Origin: Candidatus Moraniibacteriota bacterium
GTDB taxonomy: Bacteria; Patescibacteriota; Minisyncoccia; Moranbacterales; UBA2206
Reading direction: 5' to 3'
Length of the DNA stretch: 64,000 bases
NCBI GenBank assembly: GCA_049304095.1
Contig: JBAQNU010000024.1
Span: forward strand, 11,893 to 75,892
A model generated the notes under the pieces. That model worked only from the letters and a program-made list of their open reading frames with translations, did not search any database and had not been told where the DNA came from. The translations under genes and the position numbers were made by a program. Below, piece after piece: positions 56 to 30,856 of the stretch (positions within the stretch are counted from its first letter, which is position 1; each line of letters opens with the position of its first letter).

Positions 56-655
56 ATGAATGAATCTAAGCCAAAATTGAAAACGGCAGGTTATAACTTC
101 AGCGAAGAAGGGTTGGATGCGGTCAAAAAGAACTTGGAAGTGCAAAGAAAGCACGGAGCATTTGAATTTTTCAGAACCAATGTTGCACCAGTTCCCAGTT
201 GCAATCAGTGTATATTTTCCAGTGAATGCGAGCAGTTTCAAAAAGACCAAAAGCATTGCAGGGCTATATTGGAACTCCAAGAAGAAATTTATGCGGAAAT
301 TATCGGCTTGGATTATATCCGTCCCATTGATAAATTCATCGTGGACAGATTCGTCAAAAACTTCTGCTTCCTCATAATCATTGAACGCTGGATAGCCAAC
401 GTGGGTCCGTTTCAAGCTGGTGAGCAAGGATTAGACGTTCAACCTATACTAGCCACAAAAACGCACTATGAGCGTCTGGTGCTAAAACAGGCGGATGCGT
501 TAGGCATAGGACCGCAGGCAAGAGCGAGACTAAACTTAACTAATGTGCAGTCATTTTGTTTTGCGGAGGCATTGCAAAAAGCTAGACCGATAAACAATCA
601 AACTGCACGAATAATTTCAGAAAACGATGAAGAAGACGACGAAGATAACAACTGA
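56..655 (+). CDS. Phage terminase small-subunit-like protein; paralog of the 26928..27467 protein
   Basis: Sits directly upstream of, and overlaps by 29 nt, the large-terminase gene. Shares the Cys motif CNQCIFSSECEQF with the 26928 paralog (CQSCIFSHECEHY). Confidence 0.45.
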   Translation: MNESKPKLKTAGYNFSEEGLDAVKKNLEVQRKHGAFEFFRTNVAPVPSCNQCIFSSECEQFQKDQKHCRAILELQEEIYAEIIGLDYIRPIDKFIVDRFVKNFCFLIIIERWIANVGPFQAGEQGLDVQPILATKTHYERLVLKQADALGIGPQARARLNLTNVQSFCFAEALQKARPINNQTARIISENDEEDDEDNN

Positions 656-2165
656 AAAGCTGATTGAGTATCAAAATGATATTTGTGTCTTCTTGGAAGA
701 GCAATATTTTTTGGATTCTGGGAAGCCAATAAAGTTGGAGCCGATTCAGCGTAAAATTTTGACCGAAGTATTTAATACAAAAAACAAAGACGGACTCAGA
801 AAATACAATGACGCTCTGATTGGGCAAATTAAAAAATCGGGAAAGAGTTCACTCGCATCAGGCGTAGCGTTATATATGCTCTTCTGTGACGAGATATTTG
901 ATGAGCCCAATAATGTATATTCAATTGCATTTTCTCAAGACCAAGCCTCAATCATCTGGGAGAAAACTAAAAAAGCCATAGAGCGGAATCCAATTCTTTT
1001 GGGTAGTGTCAAGATATACCGAGACAAGATTGTTGTTCCCAGCACAGGGAGCGTTTACAAAGTGCTGAGTGCGGAAAGTTTTTCGGCTCACGGACTTGAC
1101 CCTAGTTGCGTAATTGGAGACGAAATTTGGAATCAGAAAAATCGAGACTTACTGGATGCTTTGCAATTTTCACCGACCAGAAAACAACCGCTCCGTTTTA
1201 GCGTAACTTATGCGGGAACTTCCACTGCAACTCCACTTTTTGAGCTTTACGAAAAAGGACTGAACAAGGAAAATCCCAAAATGTATTTTCACTGGTCGCA
1301 TATTCCAGAAGTAAGTTGGATTAGCCCTGAGTTTATTGAAGAGCGAAGACGAGAACTGCCCCCAGCAGTATTTCAAAGATTTTGGGAAAACAAATGGAGT
1401 GCGGGAGCTAACTCATTTTTCACCAGAGAAGACGTGATGCAATGTCGAGATGAATTTATGAAGCCAAAATTCCAAGGAGAAGAAGGCGTGCAATATTTTT
1501 ACGGTTGTGACCTCGGACTAGTAAAAGACAAAACTGCCAGCGTCATTTTGCATCAAGACAAAACCACGGGGATGATTTATGTCGACAGCATCAAAACCTG
1601 GCAAGGCACTAAGACCGACCCAGTGAAGATTGCGGACATCGAAGAGGATATGCTTTTGGCTTCACAGAATTTTCCCAGACTAAAAATCATCGTTGACCCG
1701 TGGAACCTGAAAGGAACGATAGAACGGCTTAAACGACATTGTCGCATAGAAGAGTTTACTTTCACTGGTTCAAATGTGGAGAAGCTAAGTCGCAATTTAT
1801 ACTACTTCATTCACAACGGACTAATTAAATTTTTCCCACACAAAGAATTGGAAAAGGAGCTGTTATCCTTGAACCTTGAGCAGAAATCCTACGGCTATCG
1901 CTTCGACCACCCCAGTTCGCAATTCTCTGACCACGCAATGGCATTGTCGATGGCTCTAATGCAAGTGGCAAGTGTGCGAAAACCAACAGCAGGAATTTTA
2001 ATTTCGGAAAGCCCCACGCTAGAGGAATTTATGGAGCAACAAAAGAAAGCGGAGAAGTCAGAGGTGAAAGTAATGTCAGGAGTAAATAGAACAGAGCATA
2101 ATCAAAATAATTATCCGACCCTGAGTCAGTTGGAAGAGCTTAGGAGTCAGAAGTTAATCTTATGA
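627..2165 (+). CDS. Phage terminase large subunit (ATPase plus nuclease)
   Basis: P-loop KKSGKSSLASGVA, Walker B/DE motif VIGDEIWN and a C-terminal nuclease-like region (DHAMALSMAL). About 60% identical to the 27454..28992 paralog. Confidence 0.75.
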   Translation: MKKTTKITTEKLIEYQNDICVFLEEQYFLDSGKPIKLEPIQRKILTEVFNTKNKDGLRKYNDALIGQIKKSGKSSLASGVALYMLFCDEIFDEPNNVYSIAFSQDQASIIWEKTKKAIERNPILLGSVKIYRDKIVVPSTGSVYKVLSAESFSAHGLDPSCVIGDEIWNQKNRDLLDALQFSPTRKQPLRFSVTYAGTSTATPLFELYEKGLNKENPKMYFHWSHIPEVSWISPEFIEERRRELPPAVFQRFWENKWSAGANSFFTREDVMQCRDEFMKPKFQGEEGVQYFYGCDLGLVKDKTASVILHQDKTTGMIYVDSIKTWQGTKTDPVKIADIEEDMLLASQNFPRLKIIVDPWNLKGTIERLKRHCRIEEFTFTGSNVEKLSRNLYYFIHNGLIKFFPHKELEKELLSLNLEQKSYGYRFDHPSSQFSDHAMALSMALMQVASVRKPTAGILISESPTLEEFMEQQKKAEKSEVKVMSGVNRTEHNQNNYPTLSQLEELRSQKLIL

Positions 2166-2260
2166 GTAATAAAACACAAATAGTATTAGCTCAGACTTTT
2201 CTTTTAGTGGGAATGGCGTTGATTGCGTTAATGCTGTTTTTGATATCAAGGAGATGTTAG
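2162..2260 (+). CDS. Conserved 32-aa single-TM micro-protein translationally coupled to terL; missing from the ORF track
   Basis: ATGA start/stop overlap with the terL stop codon. Hydrophobic core LVGMALIALMLFLI. A positional homolog (MKTKTQ..., 34 aa) follows the second terL at 28989. Confidence 0.4.
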   Translation: MSNKTQIVLAQTFLLVGMALIALMLFLISRRC

Positions 2261-2334
2261 GCAAGGTCAGATAATACGTGTTTTGTATCCTTAGATTTTA
2301 GGAAAGAGTAATAAATAGTTAATTTAAAAAAGTT

Positions 2335-2787
2335 ATGAAAATAAATGTGCAATTTACGCAACCTGTTTCAGCGGAAAAGATGCGACACAACTTGAGACAT
2401 CTCAAAAAGAACATCGCAGTTCTGAGACATTACATTGCGGAAGTGACGGAAGATAAATTTTATCTCAAAGATGAAAAAGGCAATGCGGTGGCAGAATTAA
2501 ACTATTTTATCCTGGAAGAAAAGCAGGCGATTAGTTTTTCAGATTTTCGTGGGAAGCATCAGAGTGAAATTGAACAGATGCTTAGTTTTCGTTTTGCAGA
2601 AGAAGTGGGAGAAAAAGCGTTCATCCATAATTTGGAAAAAAAGACTAGGATATATTTCGACTTAGCGGAATATTTTCTGATAGAAAAAGGCAAGGTCTAT
2701 AAAATTGGCTTAGACTGCGACAAATTGATAGAAATTGAGAGCTACAGAGTGCCAAGAGTGCTGAAAATGGAAGAGGGCTTGACTTAA
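2335..2787 (+). CDS. Hypothetical protein; paralog of 29135..29629
   Basis: Conserved synteny between terL and the integrase in both modules. Shared motifs YLKDEKGN/YLIKDDEK and YRVPRV/YRLPIEV. Confidence 0.5.
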   Translation: MKINVQFTQPVSAEKMRHNLRHLKKNIAVLRHYIAEVTEDKFYLKDEKGNAVAELNYFILEEKQAISFSDFRGKHQSEIEQMLSFRFAEEVGEKAFIHNLEKKTRIYFDLAEYFLIEKGKVYKIGLDCDKLIEIESYRVPRVLKMEEGLT

Positions 2788-2835
2788 CACGCACGCAAGC
2801 TAATGTTGTGACTGTAAGGAGTAAATAGCCACAAT

Positions 2836-3687
2836 ATGGAATACATTAGCCAATTTGTAGAATACCTCAAGGAGAGAAATCTGAGCCCCAACACCATTAA
2901 GGTTTGCAATAATAATCTGGTAGAGTTTTGGAATTTTTTAGGAAGGAGAAAACGTTCAATTAGGAAAGTTGAGAGGAAGGAAATCAAAGCCTTCCTTTTT
3001 ACTTTATCGGAAAAAAATAATCAACCAATCACCAGGAGAGCCAAACTGATTACATTAAGAAGTTTTTACAAATATCTCGAAGATGAAAGTTTGATAAAAA
3101 ATAACCCCACTAAGAATTTGCCTCTGCCAAAAGTTGCCAGCAAGGAACCAGCATTTTTGCAGGAATGCGAGATTAGAAAAATATTGCAGACATTCAAAAA
3201 AGGCAAAGACCCCAGAGCAGAAGTGGCAATTAGGATTTTGGTTGAGACGGGGTTCCGCTTGGCAGAATTGACGAATCTCAGCGTGGGAGATATTGATACG
3301 AAACAAAAAACTGTCAGGGTTACACGAAAAGGCAACATTGAACAAATTGTGCCAATAAATTCTGGACTCGCTAGGCTGATTAAAAGTTTTGTGAAAGGCA
3401 AAAATACTCAAGCACCGATTATTGCCAACAGGGTCGGAGAAAGAATGACGCAACGCAGAGTAGCTATTATGGTGCAGGATTATCTCAAAAAAGCCAAAGT
3501 ACATAGAGCTGGAATTTCAGCACATAGCTTCAGGCATAGTTTTTGCGTGCGGATGCTTCAGAAAAAAGTGAATCTAAAAGCAATCCAGCTTTTGTGTGGG
3601 CACAGGTCAATTTCAACAACTGAGCGGTATTTGCATATAAATAGCTTAGAACTGAGAAAGGGGGTGGCAATGGCAGAAATAGTCTAG
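2836..3687 (+). CDS. Tyrosine recombinase/integrase (XerC/D-like)
   Basis: C-terminal catalytic signature HSFRHSF...LLGH...TERY (R-H-R-Y) and an N-terminal SAM-like core-binding region. Confidence 0.85.
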   Translation: MEYISQFVEYLKERNLSPNTIKVCNNNLVEFWNFLGRRKRSIRKVERKEIKAFLFTLSEKNNQPITRRAKLITLRSFYKYLEDESLIKNNPTKNLPLPKVASKEPAFLQECEIRKILQTFKKGKDPRAEVAIRILVETGFRLAELTNLSVGDIDTKQKTVRVTRKGNIEQIVPINSGLARLIKSFVKGKNTQAPIIANRVGERMTQRRVAIMVQDYLKKAKVHRAGISAHSFRHSFCVRMLQKKVNLKAIQLLCGHRSISTTERYLHINSLELRKGVAMAEIV

Positions 3688-3742
3688 TCGTTTGACCAAA
3701 GCTCTTTTAAAATTCAATAAAGAGAAAGCCGACAGAGTAAAA

Positions 3743-3961
3743 GGATGGAGAGCTAGGGATGGAGCGTGGAGTTGATTTTTAACAAGATATGAGTATATAA
3801 TAGAATCAACAATTCAGTGCCTAACCCTTGTGGGTAAAATCGCAAGGTATGGTATAAAAACCGTTCAAAGTATTAAGCTCTCCATCCAGAGCACTTTGAA
3901 CGGTCATATCTCGAAAGGGATATGGGTGACGCAAGTCATCGCTGGTGGGGAGCTTTGTGTT
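3743..3961 (+). ncRNA. Candidate structured RNA (copy A), conserved with copy B at 30584..30800
   Basis: Intergenic, with a 12-bp stem in which 3 bp are fully compensated between the copies (ccgTTCaaag/ctttGAAcgg versus ccgACTaaag/ctttAGTcgg). It also has a GAAA-capped 8-bp stem and a GCAA-capped stem that change compensatorily. The strand is assumed from gene context. Confidence 0.45.
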
Positions 3962-4016
3962 ATCTTACCAGCAAGAAATTGGTGGCTTTTTTAATTCACT
4001 AAAACCGACTAAAAAA

Positions 4017-5057
4017 ATGGAAACACAACAAAATGAAAAAACCAAGAAGTGTCCATATTGTGCAGAAGAAATTCGCACCGAGGCAATCAAATGTAAATAT
4101 TGCGGAAGTAGTTTGCTAAAGGAAAATATTTCACAACAAGAAACGCATATAACTAAAAAAACTGAGCCAATGGTGCGTCAAAGTTTTTGGACATTCTTGA
4201 GTGTCATCCTGGTATTATTGTTCCTTAGCCCAGCTATAATTATATTTTGGTATATCTCTGTGCCTCTAATTCTTTCTATTATAGCTTTTCTTATTACGAG
4301 GAAAACAAAACTAAATCGAAAAAACAAAATATTGATTGTAACTGCATCATTTATCATACCAGTCCTAATCGGAATACTTTATAACAATGCTTTAAATAGA
4401 AAGCCAGTCATTACCGTAAGTGAACCTCAAAATAACTCAACTGTTCAGGTATATAAGATTATTGTGAAAGGTAAAGTCGAACCAAAAGATGCTGAATTGA
4501 AAATAGATAATCACTTAGTTAGTACTGATGATGGAAAATTTTCTTACGAGATGCTGTTGCTGATGGAAAAAAATTCAATAACTATTGATGCTAAAAATGG
4601 CTCAAGTAATGAAAGCACTAAGTTGATTGTAAATAGAACTTTTACCGATGAAGAAAAAGTAGCGATTGAAAATAAAAGAAAAGAAGATGAATCAAGGAAG
4701 ATGGCAATTGCGGAGCAGGCAGAAAGGGATAGAGTTGTAAGCGAAGCACAAGCAGAAAAAGATAGGATAGCACAAGAAAAAATTCTTTTAGCAGAAGAAA
4801 TAGCCTATGAAAAAACTAAAGCTGGAAGAATTCACACAAAACACCTGGATTGGTCAAAGGAAGATTGCGAAAGATTGGCAAATAATAAAATCTGGATTGG
4901 GATGAGTTATGATATGCTCGTTGAATTATGGGGGAAGCCAAATTATGCCACTCCTTCAAATTATGGAAATGGAACAACTTGGCAATGGTGTTGGACATAT
5001 AATACACCTTCTTGTTTTTATGGTGATGCCGATGGAATAGTTGATAGCTATAATTAA
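4017..5057 (+). CDS. Zinc-ribbon (CPYC...KCKYC) membrane protein with a coiled-coil region
   Basis: Start moved to the Met at 4017 (METQQNEK), which aligns with METQNKK of the 30857 paralog. N-terminal CxxC-x9-CxxC, two or more TM helices, and a Glu/Ala/Lys-rich coiled coil. Confidence 0.55.
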
Positions 5058-22240: not shown

Positions 22241-24862
22241 TTGTTCGGTGGCTCCTGCTGGCCTTGGATGCGAACTATTCCGTCCATCCGAGGTCAACTG
22301 GAGTCACGACGGAATTATATGAACTACGGTAATATCTCGCCGCGAGAGTATCTGCGAGAAAAAAACATTGAATTCAGGGAAGTAAACGGTGAACTGGTAA
22401 TGAAGTGCATTTTTGGAGATTGCGATAGCGACAGTACGGAAAACGAAGCGCATCTTTGGATGAATGCCGAGACTGGGCAATACCAATGCAAGAAATGCCA
22501 GGCAGAGGGAAACCTCCTAACGCTTGCTAAACATCTTGGCGATAGGATAGTTGATGTTGTTAAGCAGCCGAAAATTCAAAAACTTAAAAAGGTGTTTGAT
22601 CCAAGCCTAGTGGATTTTTGCCATGACAGACTGCCGGATGAGATTAGAAAATATTTGAATAACCGCGGTTTGAATAACGAACTGATTAACGAATATAAAC
22701 TGGGTTGGTGGGTTTCTCGAAATGGAAACAGAATAAGTATTCCGGTTAAAAACGAATCAGGCGAATACATATATTTGAAACTGAGGAAAGACCCGAGTGA
22801 TTCGAGTAAGGGAAATAAGTATATTTTCTATCCCAATGCCAGTTCCAGCTTATTTGGCATAGAACTACTGCGAAAAGAAAAAGGTAGGGTATTTATTTGC
22901 GAAGGTGAGTTGGATTGCATCCTGCTTCAGTCGAAAGGATTGATAGCAGTAACTTCCACGGCCGGTGCGGGAACTTTCAAAAAGGAATGGATAAAGGAAT
23001 TTGAGCATCTTAAGGAAGCATATATAGTTTTTGACAACGATGACGAGGGGAGAGCCGGATCGGAAATGGTGGCTAAAAAACTATCGGCCATTGACGGACT
23101 GGAGGTTAAAATAATTCGTCTTCCTGAAGCAGTGGGTGAAAAAGGAGATATTACCGATTATTTTGTAAAGCTGAACGGCACGAAAAAAGAGTTAACCAGA
23201 TTGGCTGAACCGTTTGAAATGGAAACCGAAGAAGCTGAGGATGACGACACGGATGAAAGAAAAAACCAAAGCGACCTTATTGTTGAATTAGTGAAGGAAA
23301 ACAAGAGGATTGTTCTTTTCCATGATGACGCTAGAAGTCCGTATATCAGTCTGCCGGTTTCCGGACATAACGAGATATTAAATCTGAAGGATCAGAATTT
23401 CAAATATTGGCTGGGAAAGAAGTTTTGGGATAAATACAAAAAGGCTCCCAATTCCGATTCCATTAACAATGCCCTTAATATTATTAAAGGTGAGGCAATA
23501 TTTAACGGATCGGAATATAAGCTGGAATGTCGGGTGGCGATTAGAGACGATGCTATTTGGTATGATCTTTCCAATAAAAAATGGCAGGCAGTAAAGATTA
23601 CCAAAGACGGATGGGAAATTGTGGATAATTCTCCGATAATGTTTCGCCGATATTCCCACCAGAAAGCGCATCCCTTGCCAGTAAGGGGAGTGGCCATTGA
23701 ATTATTATTGCCATTCATAAACATTAGGGATAATGGACAACAGCTTTTGCTTCTGGTTTATATAATCAGCTGTTTCATTCCCGGCTTTCCACATCCGGTT
23801 ATCAATATTTATGGTGCCCAAGGTTCAGCTAAGAGCACCCTATTCAAATTGATTAAAAAGTTAGTCGATCCATCGCTTATCGAGGTATCTAGTTTTCCCC
23901 AAGGCGAAGACAGTTTTGTTTTAAAGCTGTCTCATCATTGGTGTATTCTCTTCGATAATGTTTCCTTTTTGTCCGATCAGACTTCAGATTTGCTTTGCAA
24001 GGCAGTGACAGGCGCGGCCTTTTCCAAAAGAGAACTTTACAGCGATGACAACGATGTCATACATACTTTCCGGAGGTGCTTGGGAATAAATGGAATAAAT
24101 TTGGTTACATCCAAGCCGGATTTATTGGAAAGGAGTTTGTTGTTTGAACTGGACAGAATTCCGCCAGAAGACCGAAAATTGGAGCAGGATATTATTGATA
24201 ATTTTGAGCAAATGTTGCCGGAACTATTAGGAAGCATTTTTGACATAGTCTCTGAAACAATGAAAGTTAAACCAGGGATGAGTGCTCAAAATTTGACCAG
24301 GATGGCTGATTTTGCCCATTGGGGTTCGGCTATTGCCAGAGCTTTAGGGCACAAGGAGACAGAATTTCTGGAAGCTTACCGCAATAATATAGCCAACCAG
24401 AATAACGAAGTGCTTTTGGAGAATTTCGAAGCTATAACCATCCTCACTTTTATGGAATACAGGGATGAATGGGAAGGAACCGCGTCGGAACTACTGGAAG
24501 AATTGAAAATTATAGCTGGAAAGCTGCAAATTGACATCAAAGAAAAAGGATTTCCTAAAAGTGCCAATAATCTTAGTAAAAGAATCAACCGTCTGAAAAC
24601 TAACTTGGAAGAAGCTGGGATAAAAGTTTACCGCAAGGAAGAAAACAGGCAAAGGATAATACGCTTCCAACGAGTTGGCAAATCAGTCGTTTCTATCGAT
24701 GCATCGTTGCAAGATGGCGTTTTAAATAACGATAGCAACGGTAAAAACGATGAAAACGCAAGCTTGTCGGAGCAAAAAAGCTTGCTTGAAAAGGAAGGAG
24801 GTGTAGTTGAAGCGGAAAAATACAGCGATGAATATGACATTGCTGAGGAAATAGATTTTTAG
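22241..24862 (+). CDS. Bifunctional DNA primase (zinc finger plus Toprim) fused to a P4/D5-type NTPase
   Basis: CKKCQAEGN zinc motif. Toprim FICEGELDC...VFDNDDEGRAG. P-loop GAQGSAKST. The true start may be the Met at 22319 (MNYGNISPREYL). Confidence 0.7.
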   Translation: MFGGSCWPWMRTIPSIRGQLESRRNYMNYGNISPREYLREKNIEFREVNGELVMKCIFGDCDSDSTENEAHLWMNAETGQYQCKKCQAEGNLLTLAKHLGDRIVDVVKQPKIQKLKKVFDPSLVDFCHDRLPDEIRKYLNNRGLNNELINEYKLGWWVSRNGNRISIPVKNESGEYIYLKLRKDPSDSSKGNKYIFYPNASSSLFGIELLRKEKGRVFICEGELDCILLQSKGLIAVTSTAGAGTFKKEWIKEFEHLKEAYIVFDNDDEGRAGSEMVAKKLSAIDGLEVKIIRLPEAVGEKGDITDYFVKLNGTKKELTRLAEPFEMETEEAEDDDTDERKNQSDLIVELVKENKRIVLFHDDARSPYISLPVSGHNEILNLKDQNFKYWLGKKFWDKYKKAPNSDSINNALNIIKGEAIFNGSEYKLECRVAIRDDAIWYDLSNKKWQAVKITKDGWEIVDNSPIMFRRYSHQKAHPLPVRGVAIELLLPFINIRDNGQQLLLLVYIISCFIPGFPHPVINIYGAQGSAKSTLFKLIKKLVDPSLIEVSSFPQGEDSFVLKLSHHWCILFDNVSFLSDQTSDLLCKAVTGAAFSKRELYSDDNDVIHTFRRCLGINGINLVTSKPDLLERSLLFELDRIPPEDRKLEQDIIDNFEQMLPELLGSIFDIVSETMKVKPGMSAQNLTRMADFAHWGSAIARALGHKETEFLEAYRNNIANQNNEVLLENFEAITILTFMEYRDEWEGTASELLEELKIIAGKLQIDIKEKGFPKSANNLSKRINRLKTNLEEAGIKVYRKEENRQRIIRFQRVGKSVVSIDASLQDGVLNNDSNGKNDENASLSEQKSLLEKEGGVVEAEKYSDEYDIAEEIDF

Positions 24863-24950: not shown

Positions 24951-25181
24951 ATGACCAACACTAAAAAGAAAATTGAAGAGCTGAATCAGGTTCTTTCCGA
25001 TCACTCCGATATGAGGGGAAGTCGGCAAGTGTTCTATCTGTTTCCGCAATTCTATCAGGAAAAGTTATATAAGCTGGAAGTCCTGCTTTCTGAAAAATAT
25101 GGCATCGCGGGAAAGTCCAAAATTATAGCTCTGGCAGTAAGCTATCTAATCAAGGAAATAGAAAAAGATGAAAAAGTATAA
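24951..25181 (+). CDS. Small hypothetical protein
   Basis: ORF overlapping the methyltransferase start. Confidence 0.3.
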   Translation: MTNTKKKIEELNQVLSDHSDMRGSRQVFYLFPQFYQEKLYKLEVLLSEKYGIAGKSKIIALAVSYLIKEIEKDEKV

Positions 25182-26232
25182 GTTTCAGTCGGCAAACTTT
25201 CCCTATCTGGGAAGCAAAATTAGGCAAAGTTCCACCTTGGCGAGTTTTGTAAAGCCAGAAAAGCACAAAGTGCTAATCAGTCCGTTTGCCGGCGGTTGTT
25301 CTTTTGAGCTATTCGCTAAACATAGGCTGGGATTGAAAATAATCTCTAATGATTGGTCTCTGGTTTCATATGTTGCCCAGAAAGCATTATTGGAAAATAA
25401 CACCGCGAAAATATCGCTGAATGATATTTATTATCTCTTCAGAGAAAATACAAACGATGGTTTCGTCAGAAAAAATTACAACAAGTTTTTTACTGATGAA
25501 ATTTGTGAATTTCTAGACAGAGCTACGGAGAATATTCGACAGCTTCCGGACAGCTACCGAAAATATCTACTTTCCCACTTAATAATCTATTATATTCTCC
25601 ATACCCTGCCTTACGGCAAATTCGGATGCACCGCGGATATCAGGAATGTTAAGGCTGTGGGGATGGAATTGGCGGTGGCAGAAGCGGTGAAGACATCAGA
25701 TTCGAGAGCCAATAAACTGCTGAAAAGTGTCCAACATCCGCTGATCATTCTCAAGAAATTGGTGAGGGGAATAAATGCCGGGGTGAAAAATAATAACAAG
25801 GTCAATGTGGCATACAACGAAGATGTGCTTGAATTCCTGCCCAAGACAAGGGAATTTGAAAATGAGGCTGTAATGATGGCGGACGCGCCATATTTCGAAT
25901 CGACGAGTTATTCAATGTATGATGCTTTTTCAGAAATTCTGCTGGGCAAGAAAATCCCTAAAAGCAATAGTGCGTTCAACAGCAAAGAGGTAGAAGAGTG
26001 GTTTGATAAATTCTTTGAAGCCTGCCAGCACATTGATCTATGGCTCTTGACCTATGGAGCCAAGGTGGACGAGCCGGGCGCGCTTCATTCGGATAAGTTT
26101 CTGGAGATGGTCAAAAAACACCGACCAAATGCGAAACTGCTGATGCTGGAAAATTTCAGCTGGAGCATTAACAATTTATCAGGCAAGAGTCCCAGGGAAT
26201 GCGAAGAATTTATCGTAATCGCAAAAAAGTAA
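25168..26232 (+). CDS. D12-class (Dam-like) N6-adenine DNA methyltransferase
   Basis: YLGSK (KWAGGK-like motif), SPFAGGCSFELFA (FxGxG motif I) and MADAPYF (DPPY-like motif IV). Confidence 0.65.
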   Translation: MKKYKFQSANFPYLGSKIRQSSTLASFVKPEKHKVLISPFAGGCSFELFAKHRLGLKIISNDWSLVSYVAQKALLENNTAKISLNDIYYLFRENTNDGFVRKNYNKFFTDEICEFLDRATENIRQLPDSYRKYLLSHLIIYYILHTLPYGKFGCTADIRNVKAVGMELAVAEAVKTSDSRANKLLKSVQHPLIILKKLVRGINAGVKNNNKVNVAYNEDVLEFLPKTREFENEAVMMADAPYFESTSYSMYDAFSEILLGKKIPKSNSAFNSKEVEEWFDKFFEACQHIDLWLLTYGAKVDEPGALHSDKFLEMVKKHRPNAKLLMLENFSWSINNLSGKSPRECEEFIVIAKK

Positions 26233-26252
26233 TCAATTAACCAAATGCCAAA

Positions 26253-26891
26253 ATGACAAACCAAAAAATCTATTCAGAAGTAAAACTAGTTCCCATTGGG
26301 GAAATTAAGCCCAGCCCTTTTGAAAATGCCAATGAGTTTTCCGAAGAACTTTACGAGGCACTGAAAACAGATATTGACGAATATGGATTAGTCGGACAAG
26401 CCTTGGTGGTAAATTCCAAGGACAATACGCTGATTGACGGACACCACCGGCTCAAGGTGATGCAGGAGCTTGGATACACGGAAGTGCCAGTGGTATTTTA
26501 CGAACCCAAGGATGGGATTGAACACAAAATTCTTTCCATCGCTTGGAACAGGAAACGCGGCACATTCAACGAACAGATACTACACAACACTATCAAAAGC
26601 ATCCACGATTCAGGAGTATATGGTCTGGAAGAATTGGCTGTGAGATTGGGCTTCAACTATTCAGAAATTCAAGAAAAATTGGAAGCGATAAAAATTGACG
26701 AGAATTTGATTAAAAAACTGGAAAGTGATGCCAAAGAACAAGAGGAAGCATTGCCAGTCTTAATGACATTTTCACTGAGTAAAAAGGACGCTGAACTGGT
26801 GGAAGAAGCATTGGAATGGGCTAAACAAAAGACCAGAGGAGAAGCGTTAGCGAAGGCGTGTGCGATGTATCTTGGCTTCGCCAAGGAATAG
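26253..26891 (+). CDS. ParB-like nuclease domain protein
   Basis: KLVPIGEIKPSP...LIDGHHRLKVMQELG ParB/Srx signature. Confidence 0.7.
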   Translation: MTNQKIYSEVKLVPIGEIKPSPFENANEFSEELYEALKTDIDEYGLVGQALVVNSKDNTLIDGHHRLKVMQELGYTEVPVVFYEPKDGIEHKILSIAWNRKRGTFNEQILHNTIKSIHDSGVYGLEELAVRLGFNYSEIQEKLEAIKIDENLIKKLESDAKEQEEALPVLMTFSLSKKDAELVEEALEWAKQKTRGEALAKACAMYLGFAKE

Positions 26892-26927
26892 GCAGGAGAA
26901 ATATAAAGGGAAAAACAGTAAAAATTT

Positions 26928-27467
26928 ATGGCTGAAAGTAAAAAACCAGTATTGATGGGACCGAAAACAGAAGAGGGGATAAAAAAGGTTACCCAGAATC
27001 TCAAAAGAGAATCGGTCTTAAAGTCGGGCGGATTCGCCTTTTTGAAGTCCGGTTTAGCCCCAAACTGCCAAAGCTGTATCTTTAGCCACGAGTGCGAGCA
27101 TTACGCGCCTGAAGCCAAATTTTGCCGAGCAGTGCTGGAATTTGAGAGCCAATTGGAGGACCAAATTATGGCTTTGCCCCAGATTCAGGAAATAGACCGC
27201 ATTTTGGTCAAAAGGCTCGTGAGAAACTATGGCTTCCTATATATCACGGATAAGTGGTTAGCCAAAGCCTCTCCGTTCCTATTGGAAAACAAGCAGTTTG
27301 ATTTTCAGCCAATCCTGAAAACCAGGACAGTTTATGAGCGCCTCATAATCCACTTCTGCAGTGCTTTAGGATTAACTCCGGAAGCTAGAAGCAGAATCGG
27401 ACTGAATGTGGCACAGACATATAGTTTGGCTAAAGAATTAAGCGAACTGGAATATGACGAAGATTAA
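26928..27467 (+). CDS. Phage terminase small-subunit-like protein (paralog of 56..655)
   Basis: Conserved motifs and position relative to terL; overlaps the terL start. Confidence 0.45.
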   Translation: MAESKKPVLMGPKTEEGIKKVTQNLKRESVLKSGGFAFLKSGLAPNCQSCIFSHECEHYAPEAKFCRAVLEFESQLEDQIMALPQIQEIDRILVKRLVRNYGFLYITDKWLAKASPFLLENKQFDFQPILKTRTVYERLIIHFCSALGLTPEARSRIGLNVAQTYSLAKELSELEYDED

Positions 27468-28992
27468 ACCCATCACCAGAGAAAAACTGATTGAATACAA
27501 AAAAGACATTGTTGTCTTTCTTCAGGAACAATACATCCTAGAAGATGGTAAGCCGATTAAACTGGAGGAATTTCAAAAGAAAATCCTCAGAGATATTTTC
27601 CAGACCAAAAATACAAATGGTTTCAGGAAATACAACCTGGTTTTGATTGGCGTGCCAAAAAAGAATGGAAAATCCACGATGGCATCGGCAGTGGCTTTGT
27701 ATTCCTTGTTTACTGAAATGAACGGCGAAGTTTACGGAGCGGCAGGCGACAAGGATCAGGCCAAAATTATTTTCCAGATGACCAAGCGAGCCATTGAAAG
27801 AAATCCCATTTTGCTTGATTCAGTGAGAATCTACAAAGATGAAATTGTGGTTCCCAGCACAAACAGTGTCTATCGCGTTCTCTCCGCTGACGCCCCAACT
27901 GCCCATGGTTTGAATCCCTCCTGCGTGATTTTCGATGAACTTTGGAATCAACCCAATCGTGACCTGTATGACGCGCTAACGCAAAGTCCAGTCCGAAAAG
28001 AACCGCTGACTTTTGTGGTAACTTACGCCGGAACAGACCAGACCAGTTTGCTCTATGACATCTATCAGACAGGAATGCAAAAGCGAGACTCCAAAATGTA
28101 TTTTTTCTGGAGTGAAAATAATTTGGCGAGCTGGGTGAATGAGGAATATCTGGAACAGCAACGGATGCGTCTGCCAGCTGGAGTGTATCAACGACTCCAT
28201 GAGAACAAGTGGGTGCAGGGTGAAAATGCGTTCATTCAAAAATCGGAAGTGGAAGCCTGTAAAGATTATGCTTTGAAGCCCCAGCTTAACGGCAGGGAAA
28301 ATATAAAGTATTATCTGGCAGTGGATTTGGGATTAATCCGCGACAGAACAGTTTTGACGATTTGCCACAAAGATAAAAATGATAACCTTATTTATCTCGA
28401 CTTCATCAAAACTTATCAAGGCACCAAAAAGAACCCGGTGCTCATCAGCGACATTGAGTCGGATATCCTTTGGGCGAATCAAAATTTCAACATCAGAAAA
28501 GCCATTTTGGATATCTGGCAGATGAAAAACAGCGCCCAGAAATTAAAAAGGATGGGAGTGAGAATAGAAGAATTTACATTCACATCAAGCACTATTCAGA
28601 AATTATCCCAGAACCTCTTCTACTTGTTTCATAATTCTCTCATCAGAATTTTCCCTTGCAAATTGCTGGAAGATGAACTACTGAGTCTGAACGCCGAAGA
28701 AAAATCGTATGGTTGGAGATTGGATCATAAGTCGGGAGGATTTTCTGACCATGTCATAAGTCTTGGGATGAGCAGTATGTTCGCCATCCAAGATGAACGG
28801 GCGAGTGCTGGAGTGCTCATTTCCGAAAGTCCAACTTTTGAAGAGTTCGAAGCCCAGCTCAAAAAAGAGGAACAGTTACGAGGCAAGGTCATTGAAGCAG
28901 GAGTAAAGAAGCCAGAACATATTAAACCTAAACAATCCTTTCCCACACTCAAAGAGTTGGAAGAGTTTCGGGCAAGGAAATACATTCTATGA
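27454..28992 (+). CDS. Phage terminase large subunit
   Basis: PKKNGKSTMASAVA P-loop, VIFDELWN, and a nuclease-domain C-terminus; paralog of 627..2165. Confidence 0.75.
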   Translation: MTKIKPITREKLIEYKKDIVVFLQEQYILEDGKPIKLEEFQKKILRDIFQTKNTNGFRKYNLVLIGVPKKNGKSTMASAVALYSLFTEMNGEVYGAAGDKDQAKIIFQMTKRAIERNPILLDSVRIYKDEIVVPSTNSVYRVLSADAPTAHGLNPSCVIFDELWNQPNRDLYDALTQSPVRKEPLTFVVTYAGTDQTSLLYDIYQTGMQKRDSKMYFFWSENNLASWVNEEYLEQQRMRLPAGVYQRLHENKWVQGENAFIQKSEVEACKDYALKPQLNGRENIKYYLAVDLGLIRDRTVLTICHKDKNDNLIYLDFIKTYQGTKKNPVLISDIESDILWANQNFNIRKAILDIWQMKNSAQKLKRMGVRIEEFTFTSSTIQKLSQNLFYLFHNSLIRIFPCKLLEDELLSLNAEEKSYGWRLDHKSGGFSDHVISLGMSSMFAIQDERASAGVLISESPTFEEFEAQLKKEEQLRGKVIEAGVKKPEHIKPKQSFPTLKELEEFRARKYIL

Positions 28993-29093
28993 AGACCAAA
29001 ACCCAGTCGCTGTTATCGTCCCTGTTTATATCGGCATTATTCGCAACATTCATTTGGACAATGTATGAGCGCTATTGCCAAACAGTCAGATAA
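28989..29093 (+). CDS. Conserved 34-aa single-TM micro-protein coupled to terL (paralog of 2162..2260)
   Basis: ATGA overlap with the terL stop. MKTKTQSLLSSLFISALFATFIW hydrophobic helix. Confidence 0.4.
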   Translation: MKTKTQSLLSSLFISALFATFIWTMYERYCQTVR

Positions 29094-29134
29094 TAGCTGT
29101 TGTCAGTCCCTTTTAATTTGTAATTTTAACCAAA

Positions 29135-29629
29135 ATGATAATCATTCAATTTTTACGAGAAGTGAGCGCGGGAAGATTCTTCCATAATTTGAAAGATGTG
29201 AAGAAAATTCATCCAGTTTTTAAGCGGTATATTTCAGAAGTTGGTGAGGATAAGTATCTTATTAAAGACGATGAGAAAATAGTGGCAGAGTGTCGTTTTG
29301 ATATTTCTGATTTGGAAATGCTTTGCGAAGCGCGATTCTATAATCTAAAAGGCGACCAAGAGTCGCTAAAAAAACTGATTGTTTTTACTCTTCCCAGATA
29401 TATTGATGAACGAGCTTTCATTGCCGACAGCAACGGTCTGGGATATTACTTCGATGCCACCAATCATTTCCTGATTGACGGTGATAAGTATTATTTAATC
29501 GGCAATGATGATGAAAAGCTAATTCCCATTGAGCATTACCGCCTGCCGATAGAAGTGAAAAGGGAAGATTGGCAGGAAAAGCTGAAGAATCTCTTGGAAA
29601 AAGCCAAAAGCCAAGGAGTGGATAAGTAG
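29135..29629 (+). CDS. Hypothetical protein (paralog of 2335..2787)
   Basis: Conserved synteny and shared motifs. Confidence 0.5.
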   Translation: MIIIQFLREVSAGRFFHNLKDVKKIHPVFKRYISEVGEDKYLIKDDEKIVAECRFDISDLEMLCEARFYNLKGDQESLKKLIVFTLPRYIDERAFIADSNGLGYYFDATNHFLIDGDKYYLIGNDDEKLIPIEHYRLPIEVKREDWQEKLKNLLEKAKSQGVDK

Positions 29630-29687
29630 GCCTTGATAGTATTCCCCAAAGAGCTATGGTGTGTCCATAAGTTAAGAGTAAAACAAA

Positions 29688-30539
29688 ATGGATCATATCA
29701 AAGACTATTTGGATTACCTGAAACTGGAGCGGTGCTTAAGCGAGCACACGGTCAGGGTCTACAAAAACAATCTGCATGAGTTTCGTGATTATTTAGGAAA
29801 GAGCGGTTCAATTAGGGCGACAAAGAGGAAAGACATCCGAGCCTTCCTCTTTTCGTTAGCCAATCAGCCGATTACCAAAAGATTGAAACAAACGACCCTG
29901 CGAAATTTCTTCAGATTCTTGGAAGACGAAAATATCATCAGAGATAATCCGATGAAAAATCTGCCGATGCCCAAAGTAATCAGCCGTGAGCCAAGTTATC
30001 TTTCAGAATTAGAAGTCAGGAAATTGATTGGCGCGGTGGAAAAGGATGAGTCCAAGTTTCAACCAAGAAACGAGGTGGCAGTTAGGATTTTAGCCGAGAC
30101 AGGCTTTCGACTCAGTGAATTGACCAATATAAGCCTCAACGACATCAATTTGGAAAACAAAACCATCCGTATTAGGCGGAAAGGCAATGTGGAACAGGTT
30201 GTGCCGATTAACAAAAGACTAGCCAAATTATTGAAAGTATTTATGAAGGGCAAAAAACCAAATGAACCGCTGATCAAAAGCAGTCTGGGGAAAAGAATGA
30301 CTGCGAGGAGGGTTTCTTTGATGCTTCAGAAGTATTTGGAAAAAGCCGGAGTAGCAAGAAAAGGAATATCAGTCCATAGCCTTCGTCACAGCTATTGTGT
30401 GAGGCTTTTGGAAAAAGGGGCGAGTCTCCGGGCGACTCAGATTTTGCTCGGACATAAATCTATTGCTACGACGGAAAGATATATGCATCTCACTAAAAAT
30501 CAGCTGGCGAAGGAAGTGAAGCTGTCCCAGATAGATTGA
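29688..30539 (+). CDS. Tyrosine recombinase/integrase (paralog of 2836..3687)
   Basis: HSLRHSYCVRLL...LLGHKSIATTERYMH. Confidence 0.85.
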   Translation: MDHIKDYLDYLKLERCLSEHTVRVYKNNLHEFRDYLGKSGSIRATKRKDIRAFLFSLANQPITKRLKQTTLRNFFRFLEDENIIRDNPMKNLPMPKVISREPSYLSELEVRKLIGAVEKDESKFQPRNEVAVRILAETGFRLSELTNISLNDINLENKTIRIRRKGNVEQVVPINKRLAKLLKVFMKGKKPNEPLIKSSLGKRMTARRVSLMLQKYLEKAGVARKGISVHSLRHSYCVRLLEKGASLRATQILLGHKSIATTERYMHLTKNQLAKEVKLSQID

Positions 30540-30583
30540 CCGGAGTTCTTTGAAAACTAAAAAAAGAAAACCGATAAGTTAAT

Positions 30584-30800
30584 GGATGGAGAGACAGGAT
30601 GGACGGGTTGATTTTCGCCGATATAAATGTAATAATAAAATCAACAATTAAATGCCTAACCCTTGTGAGTAAAATCGCAAGGTATGGTATGAAAACCGAC
30701 TAAAGTGTATTAAGCTCTCCATCCAGAGCACTTTAGTCGGTCATGTCTCGAAAGGGATATGGGTGTCCGCAAGGACATCGCTGGTGGGGAGCTTTGTGTT
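30584..30800 (+). ncRNA. Candidate structured RNA (copy B)
   Basis: See copy A. About 85% nucleotide identity, with compensatory substitutions in three helices and conserved GNRA loops. Confidence 0.45.
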
Positions 30801-30856
30801 TTTCTGCCAGCGAAAACTGGCAGTTTTTTAATTCATTAAAAAAACCGACTAAAAAA

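Follow-up and report, generated by a model that had tools for sequence, protein, structure and literature searches.

The closest described counterpart of the structured block analysed here is the LOOT RNA motif, whose name reportedly stands for "Lots of tetraloops", three of its four hairpins being said to carry stable tetraloop caps, and whose host organism reportedly was left unclassified in the original description. The motif was published by Weinberg et al. (2017; PMC5737381), appears as a "metagenomic-based RNA" in the Rfam 14 paper (PMC7779021) and is typed in Rfam, under accession RF03000, as "Gene; sRNA". Our search of the literature on LOOT retrieved nothing beyond the naming of the motif.

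Several well-studied regulatory RNAs offer points of comparison. In the ZTP (pfl), preQ1 and fluoride riboswitches a pseudoknot strand is also part of the terminator or antiterminator, classical leader attenuators use 1:2/2:3/3:4 pairing, and in the fold-back inhibition of IS10 and IS50 transposase mRNA the transcripts that enter from outside adopt a different fold from those initiated at the element's own promoter.

The window, i.e. the whole stretch of 64,000 nucleotides that was analysed, carries two copies of a non-coding stretch located 3' of integrase genes, and both are folded RNAs and members of the catalogued LOOT family. The core of copy A matches RF03000 with 101.6 bits (E = 1.6e-18, model positions 1-121 of 121) and that of copy B matches it over its full length with 87.8 bits (E = 2.9e-15), neither match being truncated and both scoring about twice the gathering threshold of 46.4 bits. 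The initial annotation, whose coordinates and sequences for the two copies we confirm, had proposed a candidate undescribed RNA that it could match to no family and had named a confident covariance-model match to a known family as grounds against that proposal; precisely such a match is what the search returned. A new family might still be argued from the failure of that earlier reader to match any known one and from the location of region 0, the 3' tail and regions 3 and 4 (see below) outside the 121-nt Rfam model, but with an end-to-end match in both copies, and with at least 90 further loci recovered by a model built from the window copies that proved to be LOOT (22 of 22 checked against Rfam above threshold), we find it hardly credible. 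The features of both copies are as follows.

2836-3687, + strand: tyrosine integrase A, 283 aa, last gene of a module MTase-ParB-TerS-TerL-X-Int
3743-3754, + strand: region 0 of copy A, GGATGGAGAGCT, fully complementary over 12 nt to the apical P2 segment at 3876-3887
3757-3764, + strand: second partial repeat of copy A, GGATGGAG
3772-3801, + strand: promoter-like site of copy A, -35 TTGATT (3772-3777), 18-nt spacer, -10 TATAAT (3796-3801)
3808-3817, + strand: conserved motif of copy A, AACAATTCAG, near the expected transcription start
3818-3940, + strand: LOOT core of copy A, matching RF03000 and showing covariation; the minimum-free-energy fold recovers the same helices
3818-3821 / 3851-3854, + strand: P1 of copy A, with a receptor-like internal loop (CCTAAC, 3820-3825, and TATGG, 3848-3852)
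3826-3847, + strand: P1b hairpin of copy A
3861-3871 / 3893-3903, + strand: P2 of copy A, with an apical hairpin at 3877-3892
3905-3924, + strand: P3 of copy A, GAAA loop at 3913-3916
3925-3940, + strand: P4 of copy A, GCAA loop at 3931-3934
3942-3953, + strand: 3' tail of copy A, CTGGTGGGGAGC, pairing with the apical GCTCTCCATCCAG (3877-3889) in a pseudoknot helix outside the Rfam model
3954-3961, + strand: U-rich run of copy A, TTTGTGTT, directly after the tail
3963-3972, + strand: region 3 of copy A, TCTTACCAGC, complementary to the tail
3968-3985, + strand: region 3/4 hairpin of copy A, CCAGCAA-GAAA-TTGGTGG, terminator-like with one G.G mismatch
3987-3992, + strand: T6 after the copy A hairpin
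4001-4019, + strand: translation-initiation region of copy A, AAAACCGACTAAA (4001-4013) and the ATG (4017-4019) of a Zn-ribbon membrane gene (ORF 4017-5057)
29688-30539, + strand: tyrosine integrase B, 283 aa, 53% identical to integrase A
30583-30593, + strand: region 0 of copy B, TGGATGGAGAG, a perfect 11-nt complement of the apical segment 30715-30725 (-21.4 kcal/mol)
30598-30604, + strand: second partial repeat of copy B, GGATGGA
30608-30636, + strand: promoter-like site of copy B, TTGATT, 17-nt spacer, AATAAT with an upstream TG
30653-30779, + strand: LOOT core of copy B, matching RF03000
30781-30792, + strand: tail of copy B, CTGGTGGGGAGC, followed by a U-rich run and region 3
30804-30823, + strand: predicted terminator of copy B, CTGCCAG-CGAAAA-CTGGCAG with T6 to 30829, called by a consensus terminator scan
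30841-30859, + strand: translation-initiation region of copy B, AAAACCGACTAAA (30841-30853) and the ATG (30857-30859) of a Zn-ribbon/TM2 gene

The window copies share with the Rfam model its four helices, the conserved CCUAA/AUGG internal loop, the AAAA junction and the GAAA and GNRA loops, whereas the distal P2 of the model, 8 bp long, is reduced here to a 5-bp hairpin. They carry two tetraloops (GAAA on P3 and GCAA on P4) instead of the three that the LOOT description reportedly calls for, the loops of P1b (8 nt, GGTAAAAT) and of the P2 apex (6 nt) being larger and tolerated by the model as insertions.

Copy A (3743-3961) and copy B (30584-30800) are identical in 191 of 225 aligned columns (84.9%), with 88% identity in the LOOT core and 86% from the -10 box to the start codon, as compared to 64% for the integrase genes at the nucleotide level and 67% for the spacer between the int stop codon and the -10 box. 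Stronger constraint on the RNA than on the flanking genes had been argued from about 85% identity in the RNA against 50-65% in the proteins. The former figure stands while the latter does not, as TerS (40%), TerL (54%), the 150/164-aa protein (38%) and the integrase (53%) span 38-54%; with protein identities below the earlier figure, the contrast is larger than originally stated. The high-identity block shared by the two copies is short (~230 bp). Compensated differences between them fall in P2, P3 and P4, and all three that had been described are present: a 12-bp stem with 3 fully compensated pairs, an A-U to G.U change in the GAAA-capped stem, and the replacement of TGAC/GTCA by TGTCC/GGACA in the GCAA-capped stem.

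Since ORFs 3945-5057 and 30743-31801 are open through this stretch, with in-frame upstream starts in the ORF list (GTG at 3945, ATG at 30743), it could also be taken for a translated N-terminal extension of the downstream ORF. This is ruled out by a reading frame that is inconsistent between the copies: 2-nt indels distinguish them in P2, P4 and the terminator region, and nucleotides common to both tails fall in different frames. In addition, conservation tracks base pairing rather than codons and a terminator lies inside the supposed extension, leaving a coding origin with practically no credence. The interpretation as a folded functional RNA, by contrast, has proved right, with overwhelming covariation across 92 sequences and a fold on the + strand, where copies A and B reach -79.3 and -80.2 kcal/mol (z = -7.3 and -7.0) as opposed to -57.2 kcal/mol (z = -3.9) on the opposite strand. 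In the 92 sequences, 95% of the cells are paired (64% in shuffles), changes on both sides occur in 35 of 41 pairs and the covariation score is 0.77 (0.20 in shuffles), while in a MAFFT alignment that was not fitted to the structure 88.8% of the cells in the core helices are paired.

The P3 loop is GAAA in 86 of 91 LOOT sequences, GNRA and UUCG loops are swapped for one another within the family, and the CCUAA...AUGG internal loop is invariant. A GAAA loop is likewise one partner in the tetraloop/11-nt receptor interaction of the group I intron P4-P6 domain, RNase P and tectoRNA. The receptor positions C1, C2, U3, A4, A5, A8, U9, G10 and G11, given as critical in PMC2275092, are all invariant in the P1 loop of LOOT, whereas C/U, A/C or C/C stands where the receptor has its G6:U7 wobble beneath the AA platform. 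The P1 internal loop thus resembles the 11-nt receptor in sequence, and its contact with the GAAA loop is putative.

Beyond the Rfam model, the top of P2 (region 1) is joined to the 3' tail (region 2) by a 12-bp helix with strong covariation. In an alignment that was not fitted to the structure 91-97% of its cells are paired, with many double changes, and cognate apical:tail duplexes of the LOOT loci score -24.6 kcal/mol against -14.0 kcal/mol for non-cognate ones (p = 5e-44), the value in each window copy being -23.0 kcal/mol. The apical CTCTCCATCC segment had been assigned GGATGGAGAG as its partner; this holds for one clade, while the partner used family-wide is the tail at 3942-3953, which had been overlooked within the annotated stretch itself. 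After the tail, 81 of 91 loci have a 10-nt stretch with five or more U. As a simple terminator, however, this U-run is ambiguous, because in ~60% of the loci it is also a possible loop of a hairpin formed by the tail and region 3.

The long-range pairing of the 5' GGATGGAGAG segment is borne out in five relatives of the integrase element, where the changes are compensatory, and is absent family-wide. This clade has four different apical sequences, and for each of them a complement able to form 10-12 bp lies 57-76 nt before P1 (CUCUCCAUCC/GGAUGGAGAG, CUCUCCGUCC/GGACGGAGAG, AGCUCUCCGUUC/GAGCGGAGAGCU, CUCGUUCAGAGC/GCUCUGAACGAG). The cognate region 0:apical duplex of copy A reaches -24.6 kcal/mol, and the two segments covary in the relatives L213, L214, L210, L216 and L217. 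Such a complement was not found across the 92-sequence LOOT set (p = 0.47) and is confined to the integrase-linked clade. Region 0 sits upstream of the best predicted promoter, so that its proposed role would depend on read-through into LOOT. Read-through is possible given that no terminator was predicted between the int stop codon and LOOT in copies A and B, and a weak TTGACC promoter is predicted at 3692.

The best predicted promoter of copy A has 10 of 12 consensus matches. Across 91 LOOT loci hexamers resembling a -10 box are over-represented at 15-27 nt before P1, and an ACAAYTNAAT motif is near-invariant. A hairpin with the arms GTTGATT/AATCAAC and a variable loop had been reported in this region. 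The inverted repeat exists, but as an RNA helix it is not supported: its 5' arm is the predicted -35 box and its 3' arm belongs to the conserved start-site motif, and among relatives one one-sided change (G-C to G.U) and no compensatory change is observed. The repeat is better read as part of a putative promoter comprising -35 box, -10 box and the motif near the transcription start.

Downstream of the tail, region 3 offers the tail an alternative partner, with duplex energies of -15.8 kcal/mol in copy A and -16.9 kcal/mol in copy B, where the tail and the downstream segment together fold at -18.5 kcal/mol. The same complementarity is seen family-wide (cognate mean -13.1 vs -10.5 kcal/mol, p = 2.4e-7). 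Region 3 can also pair with region 4. In copy B this yields a GC-rich hairpin followed by a U-run, as is characteristic of intrinsic terminators (7-bp stem with 5 GC pairs, then T6; -11.5 kcal/mol), while the homologous hairpin of copy A, with its G.G mismatch, was not called in the consensus terminator scan. Hairpin and U-run are kept in L213, L214, L216 and L217 and in 6 of 7 clade members overall. Among 90 loci a canonical hairpin and U-run terminator follows LOOT in just 19, and about half of these are the tail folding on itself.

The core is followed closely by a gene. In 43 of 77 loci (56%) a same-strand, ATG-initiated ORF begins 40-79 nt after it, and in the same 77-locus analysis the other three kinds of gene boundary around LOOT showed no comparable distance peak. 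In the window the downstream ORFs encode Zn_ribbon domains (copy A) and TM2 plus Zn_ribbon domains (copy B); elsewhere the products are heterogeneous and include Zn-ribbon, TM2 and DUF805 membrane proteins, a methyltransferase, nucleases, a superinfection-immunity protein and PDC-S11, and we consequently cannot propose a ligand or signal. Pairing may also extend to the translation start, as in ~20% of LOOT loci the nucleotides immediately preceding the start codon are complementary to the P2 3' strand. Of 92 cognate downstream regions, 19 hold a repeat of at least 9 nt; no such repeat was seen among the 92 upstream regions, and 906 non-cognate pairs gave 3. In copy B, AAAACCGACTAAA is an exact repeat of its own P2 5' strand (30692-30704), whereas in copy A the 13-nt identity is to that strand of copy B and not to its own; the P2 3' strand pairs with the start-codon region at -14.3 kcal/mol over 10 bp in copy B, as compared to only -5.1 kcal/mol in copy A. 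Sequestering the tail changed the modelled accessibility of the start-codon region little (0.61 vs 0.56).

Taking these pairings together, we judge the chances to be about even that LOOT acts here as a cis-acting leader or attenuator, in which the mutually exclusive pairings 0:1, 1:2, 2:3 and 3:4 would gate a terminator before the downstream gene. The pairings are there, and a regulatory outcome is what their complementarity suggests. In transcripts started at LOOT's own promoter the 1:2 pseudoknot would form, leaving region 3 free for the 3:4 terminator and ending a LOOT RNA of ~180 nt. Transcripts started upstream, by read-through from the integrase operon or at the weak TTGACC promoter at 3692, would include region 0, which would sequester region 1; the tail could then form an antiterminator by pairing with region 3, and transcription would proceed into the variable downstream gene. 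Pairing of the P2 3' strand with the start-codon region, in ~20% of loci including copy B, could add translational control.

As in riboswitches and attenuators, the chain of exclusive helices ends in a hairpin and U-run just before a gene. As in riboswitches, there is a compact aptamer-like domain with a putative tertiary contact, and depending on the locus the predicted output is a terminator or sequestration of the start-codon region. Mutually exclusive helices at a terminator or ribosome-binding site, as seen in riboswitches, are found here (1:2, 2:3, 3:4, and the P2 3' strand with the start-codon region), with a function that complementarity suggests, whereas in place of coherent-pathway genes with a defined ligand we find heterogeneous downstream proteins. 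LOOT also differs from riboswitches and attenuators in having no known ligand, leader peptide or binding protein and downstream genes without a common pathway, and from classical riboswitches in that the competitor strand, region 0, lies upstream of its own promoter. IS10 and IS50 fold-back inhibition offers a parallel, as an analogy only: a segment that only transcripts entering from upstream contain would pair internally and alter the fate of the downstream message, and the setting is likewise a mobile element with an adjacent recombinase gene. The extra pairing of IS10, however, hides the ribosome-binding site and silences, whereas the predicted effect on the pseudoknot and terminator of LOOT favours read-through.

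The Rfam type raises the question whether LOOT is instead a stand-alone, trans-acting sRNA with its own promoter and terminator, next to genes that are incidental. The promoter-like site directly upstream, the GC-rich helix and U-run after the core in nearly all loci, with a canonical terminator in copy B, the compact tetraloop-receptor fold, which fits a stable RNA or RNP, and the lack of any function common to the downstream genes would all be in line with this. The genomic arrangement nevertheless argues for a cis role: in 56% of the loci the same-strand ORF begins so soon (40-79 nt) after the core that a promoter of its own would not fit, the nucleotides immediately preceding the start codon show three-way covariation with the two strands of P2, and the conserved alternative partners of the tail would be needless for a simple terminated sRNA. 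A trans-acting seed inside an 11-13-bp helix is moreover unlikely to be available for pairing, and we consider an sRNA the less probable assignment, though one of some weight.

LOOT is located at the integrase-proximal edge of an integrative or phage-like module, D12 MTase-ParB-TerS-TerL-X-Int, whose synteny is retained in 10 relatives and whose window integrase is labelled Candidatus Moraniibacteriota. Our scan of genomes for LOOT listed at least 119 loci, and of the comparison set (at least 90 other loci, collected with the covariance model built from the window copies, for which 18 of 18 sampled matches pass the Rfam threshold) about three quarters come from MAGs labelled Patescibacteria. 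The Rfam entry, an sRNA type from metagenomes without apical-tail helix, U-run, regions 3 and 4 and the clade-specific region 0, can thereby be placed in Patescibacteria MAGs. A blastn search of the block against 50,697 phage records gave no match, and a scan of IMG/VR with the LOOT signature gave six pattern matches, none of them LOOT by the covariance model, which indicates that LOOT is not typical of recognised viral contigs.

A site-specific recombinase is found within 6 kb on the 5' side of LOOT in 25 of 88 loci and on the 3' side in 4, and recombinases account for 27 of 184 ORFs upstream but 5 of 166 downstream (Fisher p = 1.3e-4), those on the 5' side being mostly divergently oriented. 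This enrichment could mean that the block is mainly a DNA element, i.e. an attachment or recombination site or the integration target of the adjacent recombinase, with inverted repeats as recombinase-binding arms, to which the variation of the genes past LOOT between otherwise syntenic elements, the imperfect palindrome of tail and region 3 (GCTGG...CCAGC) and the shortness of the ~230-bp high-identity block would fit. The abundance of G.U pairs and the pronounced difference in folding energy between the two strands, on the other hand, put the structure on one of them, and the invariant GAAA, the GNRA/UUCG swaps and the 11-nt-receptor-like loop are RNA tertiary motifs; in addition, most LOOT loci have no recombinase nearby and the integrases are XerC/D-like without an arm-binding domain. 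Nor does the integrase need LOOT: none was found in 80 metagenome relatives of the integrase (≤36% identity), and five of 10 close relatives carry in its slot a different structured element without Rfam match, so an obligate pair of integrase and LOOT was rejected. tRNA and tmRNA genes, known as integration targets of islands, are comparable in that LOOT, too, is a small and conserved RNA gene and has recombinase neighbours far above chance, but the recombinases of LOOT lie on its 5' side, mostly divergent, rather than at the RNA 3' end, and within the window we found no att-type repeat or partial LOOT copy delimiting the far end of an element. A primarily DNA-level role is in our view distinctly improbable, although it could coexist with an RNA function.

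The element that replaces LOOT in those five relatives, located at 4400-4545 in relative L209, allows a broader, tentative speculation, which we hold to be possible yet doubtful: that LOOT and this unrelated structured element both exemplify a single, so far undescribed type of cis-acting leader, used in Patescibacteria for accessory-gene cassettes next to recombinases. The proposed design would combine an extended helix, the 5' strand of which recurs at the cargo gene's start codon, with an apical loop pairing with a downstream tail that is followed by a U-run and, in the integrase-linked clade, with an upstream decoy strand present in read-in transcripts only. A leader of this kind would respond to the origin of the transcript, or to a cellular signal received through its tetraloop-receptor domain, and would thereby gate the expression of horizontally acquired genes. 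With the seed of the second element, GGCAACTCTCCGAAA, IMG/VR yielded chance GC-rich matches only, and the seed was not found in the 64-kb window.

The finding is a known family rather than a new one. LOOT had been an orphan since 2017, without host, context or function, and the window and the collected loci now assign it a home in Patescibacteria and a recurrent context, with recombinase genes on its 5' side and variable accessory genes immediately after it. Its structure is extended by a covarying pseudoknot, or tail, helix and by alternative pairings, which offer a testable attenuation mechanism dependent on where the transcript starts. To our knowledge, almost no regulatory RNAs have been characterised in bacteria of the candidate phyla radiation, and a leader that may act on the cargo genes of mobile elements would be a useful entry point to them.

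Scanning the whole window against Rfam 15 returned exactly two above-threshold matches, both full length and both to the LOOT family (RF03000; 101.6 and 87.8 bits at a gathering score of 46.4), in the non-coding blocks 3' of two paralogous tyrosine integrases (copy A, 3743-3961, LOOT core 3818-3940; copy B, 30584-30800, core 30653-30779). The undescribed RNA proposed in the initial annotation thus falls away, as both copies belong to a catalogued family. The folded RNA itself is real and had been well observed: location and sequences were as described, the extent was nearly right, the three compensated differences between the copies were all found (the 12-bp stem is LOOT P2, the GAAA stem P3 and the GCAA stem P4), and the folding energies on the + strand are -79.3 and -80.2 kcal/mol (z = -7.3 and -7.0), compared with -57.2 kcal/mol on the opposite strand (z = -3.9). 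The identity of the copies, put at about 85%, is 84.9% over these blocks, 88% in the LOOT core and 86% between the -10 box and the start codon; it is 67% in the spacer past the integrase stop and 64% for the integrase genes, i.e., below the RNA block. The paralogous proteins share 40% (TerS), 54% (TerL), 38% (150/164-aa protein) and 53% (integrase) identity, and downstream similarity ends ∼30 residues inside the Zn-ribbon genes. In the literature covered, LOOT is only named: by Weinberg (2017), and as a “metagenome-based RNA” in a figure of the paper on Rfam 14.

A signature-pattern scan found no true LOOT in IMG/VR, and the same pattern gave at least 119 loci in a species-representative genome collection; a covariance model trained on the two window copies recovered full-length LOOT in 90 of the 119 listed loci, and all 18 loci re-checked, including the weakest matches of this model, passed the Rfam threshold. 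By their record titles, about three quarters of these LOOT loci come from MAGs assigned to Patescibacteria lineages, and there is no cultured isolate among them. The window itself corresponds to contig JBAQFD010000024.1 of GCA_049287085.1, and the NCBI label of its integrase is Candidatus Moraniibacteriota. About a dozen of the MAG contigs with LOOT (L018, L038, L043, L046, L049, L053, L068, L075, L094, L102, L115, L124) carry the labels Gammaproteobacteria, Bdellovibrionales, Bacteroidota, Simkania or Nanoarchaeota, which could reflect wrong binning or labelling, or true presence outside Patescibacteria. Across 92 sequences 95% of cells of the LOOT structure are paired (64% in shuffles), with both-sided changes in 35 of 41 pairs. 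The GAAA of P3 occurs in 86 of 91 listed sequences and the CCUAA...AUGG of the P1 internal loop is invariant among them; compared with published features (PMC2275092), the two give the signature of a putative GAAA/11-nt receptor module, except for the closing wobble pair. One contig, WARV01000011.1, carries three copies within ∼10 kb (L125:1612-1748, L125:1988-2108 and L056:772-897), two of them in tandem, each followed by a small gene; the two genes are paralogues (57 and 77 aa, both products beginning MPK(F/Y)KID), so that LOOT and its gene behave as a duplicable unit.

Both window copies have a sigma-70-like site of their own:

3772-3801, + strand, copy A, TTGATT-18-TATAAT
30608-30636, + strand, copy B, TTGATT-17-AATAAT

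Among the listed loci, -10-like hexamers accumulate 15-27 nt upstream of P1, with the motif ACAAYTNAAT in between. In 43 of the 77 loci with enough flank, a same-strand ATG-initiated ORF begins 40-79 nt past the core, and none of the other three kinds of gene boundary gives a similar peak. No common function unites the proteins encoded there, among them Zn-ribbon, TM2 and DUF805 membrane proteins, a superinfection-immunity protein, methyltransferases, nucleases and PDC-S11.

Right past the end of the Rfam model, a tail CUGGUGGGGAGC (3942-3953) complements the apical P2 segment GCUCUCCAUCCAG (3877-3889). This helix lies outside the model and shows family-wide covariation: the mean duplex energy is -24.6 kcal/mol for cognate pairs and -14.0 when each tail is exchanged for that of another locus (p = 5e-44), and in a MAFFT alignment fitted to no structure it is 91-97% paired with many double changes, the rival local 5-bp apical hairpin being 66% paired. 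Of 91 listed loci, 81 have a U-run after the tail. In ∼60% of the loci the tail has an alternative partner 20-45 nt further downstream (cognate -13.1 versus -10.5 kcal/mol, p = 2.4e-7), which in the window copies doubles as the 5' arm of a hairpin followed by T6; this hairpin is perfect in copy B (CUGCCAG/CUGGCAG, called by the terminator scan) and has one mismatch in copy A (CCAGCAA/UUGGUGG).

Since the P2 5' strand is repeated (≥9 nt) just upstream of the start codon in 19 of 92 loci (controls: 0/92 upstream regions and 3/906 non-cognate pairs), the P2 3' strand could mask the site of translation initiation. Copy B offers 10 bp (-14.3 kcal/mol) for this pairing, and copy A lacks the complementarity (-5.1 kcal/mol). 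Blocking the tail in silico slightly lowered the accessibility of the start-codon region (0.61 to 0.56, p = 0.002). The window holds three copies of the 13-mer AAAACCGACTAAA, one within the copy B P2 5' strand (30692-30704) and one upstream of each start codon (4001-4013, 30841-30853), and the start-codon region of copy A therefore matches the helix of copy B and not its own, which suggests that LOOT and its downstream part were shuffled between the copies. Degenerate versions, AAAGCCGACAGAG and AAAACCGATAAGT, lie directly upstream of the 5' segment (3727-3740, 30566-30578).

That segment, GGATGGAGAGCT (3743-3754), can pair without mismatch over 12 nt with the apical segment (11 nt in copy B). 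The long-range pairing it implies was at first set aside, given its position upstream of the predicted promoter and the absence of an upstream complement across the listed loci (p = 0.47), a decision that was reversed with ten closer integrase relatives (L209-L218, 49-89% identity). Five of the ten carry LOOT in the gap past the integrase (four of these checked against Rfam), and in all five a segment 57-76 nt before P1 forms a 10-12-bp complement of the apical sequence of that locus: CUCUCCGUCC/GGACGGAGAG in L214, AGCUCUCCGUUC/GAGCGGAGAGCU in L213 and CUCGUUCAGAGC/GCUCUGAACGAG in L210, L216 and L217. Differing sequences with matching complements amount to compensatory change, and the 5' pairing proposed initially is therefore real in the integrase clade, though not family-wide. 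It requires an RNA starting upstream of 3743, which could come from integrase read-through, as no terminator is predicted between integrase and LOOT in either copy, or from a weak TTGACC-17-CAATAA site (3692-3720); the homologous site of the sister loci is a good promoter (TTGACC-17-TAAGAT or TATTAT). Some 13 listed loci (L010, L025, L030, L031, L037, L047, L051, L072, L098 and others) share an upstream box, TGTTGGTAAC..CTTCGCAAA..CTAAGCTAGGRT, at a fixed distance (-87 to -55 before P1) and without an Rfam match, which might bind a regulator, belong to a longer transcript or serve for attachment; AGCTAGGGATGGAG in the window (3752-3765) matches its 3' part.

Five regions of the copy A locus could pair in mutually exclusive ways (0:1, 1:2, 2:3, 3:4):

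3743-3754, region 0, upstream segment
3877-3889, region 1, apical P2
3942-3953, region 2, tail
3963-3972, region 3, downstream segment
3979-3992, region 4, terminator 3' arm, with the T-run

The complementarities and their covariation are shown. We infer a folding order and an outcome from them, and give an even chance to LOOT acting here as a cis-acting leader. Transcripts from its own promoter would lack region 0, form 1:2 (-23 kcal/mol), leave region 3 free for the terminator and end as LOOT RNA. In read-in transcripts 0:1 would form (-21 to -25 kcal/mol), the tail would take region 3, the terminator would fail and the Zn-ribbon membrane gene would be transcribed.

The other five relatives, with integrases 52-89% identical to that of the window, hold a different structured element in the LOOT slot (coordinates outside the window):

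L209:4385-4600, second element
L211:4380-4548, second element
L212:4375-4570, second element
L215:4392-4620, second element
L218:4395-4600, second element

Rfam scans of four of these loci (L209, L211, L212, L215) gave no match at E ≤ 0.1; L218 was read and checked with our own LOOT covariance model. The element has nested helices (outer CCCAGTCGTCAA/TTGACGACTGGG, inner CTAGTTATGCA/TGCGTAACTAG) with some compensatory changes, and the apical GAGGCAAC forms pairs with GUUGUCUC further downstream (GGGGCAAC/GUUGUCCC in L211), which precedes a U-run. In all of the five but L211, the stretch directly upstream of the ATG contains an exact or near-exact complement of the contiguous 3' strands (in L209 and L215 it is exact over 19 nt). 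We regard the element as a candidate for an undescribed RNA, and the design logic it shares with LOOT supports a cis-regulatory reading of both. LOOT was reportedly first described as a likely trans-acting sRNA without a known host; that it is a plain trans-acting sRNA we consider unlikely.

Site-specific recombinases make up 9 of the 54 ORFs directly upstream of LOOT (5 large serine, 4 tyrosine) and 0 of 56 directly downstream; among all ORFs of at least 180 aa, 27/184 upstream versus 5/166 downstream are recombinase-like (p = 1.3e-4), and divergent orientation is seen for 20 of the 22 upstream serine recombinases. About a quarter of the listed loci (L007-L125) have a large serine recombinase gene within 6 kb 5' of LOOT. 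LOOT therefore marks recombinase-proximal, variable regions, and its units could be integration targets or cargo at element ends. That it is primarily a DNA-level recombination site appears improbable, the least favoured of the three readings; the integrase is independent of LOOT, because 0 of 80 distant relatives carry it and five close ones have the other occupant.

All ten relatives share the gene order D12 methyltransferase, ParB, TerS, TerL, ∼145-aa protein and integrase, followed by a gene-free gap of ∼190-300 nt and then variable genes; the junction between this module and “leader RNA plus cargo” lies ∼25 nt past the integrase stop (∼3712 in copy A). The proteins include a D12 adenine methyltransferase, a ParB-like protein, a TerL that is full-length PHROG 9 and a XerC/D-like tyrosine integrase, no capsid or portal genes adjoin, and the module may represent a Moranbacteria element similar to a satellite or a phage-plasmid. 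Window positions 2836-36597 form a dense mobile and defence island with five tyrosine recombinases (2836, 15301, 18558, 20582, 29688) and with what looks like a CBASS pair, a nucleotidyltransferase (34353) and a neighbouring Cap15 effector (35273). Module and further island genes are:

56-3687 and 25168-30539 (L209-L218: 1-4350), syntenic module
6846, helicase-MTES_1575 nuclease fusion
10622, OLD-family nuclease
14479, HEPN protein
22241-24862, Toprim primase-like protein
33393, Fic protein

For the orphan RNA LOOT, this supplies a context, extends the structure and offers a mechanism that can be tested.
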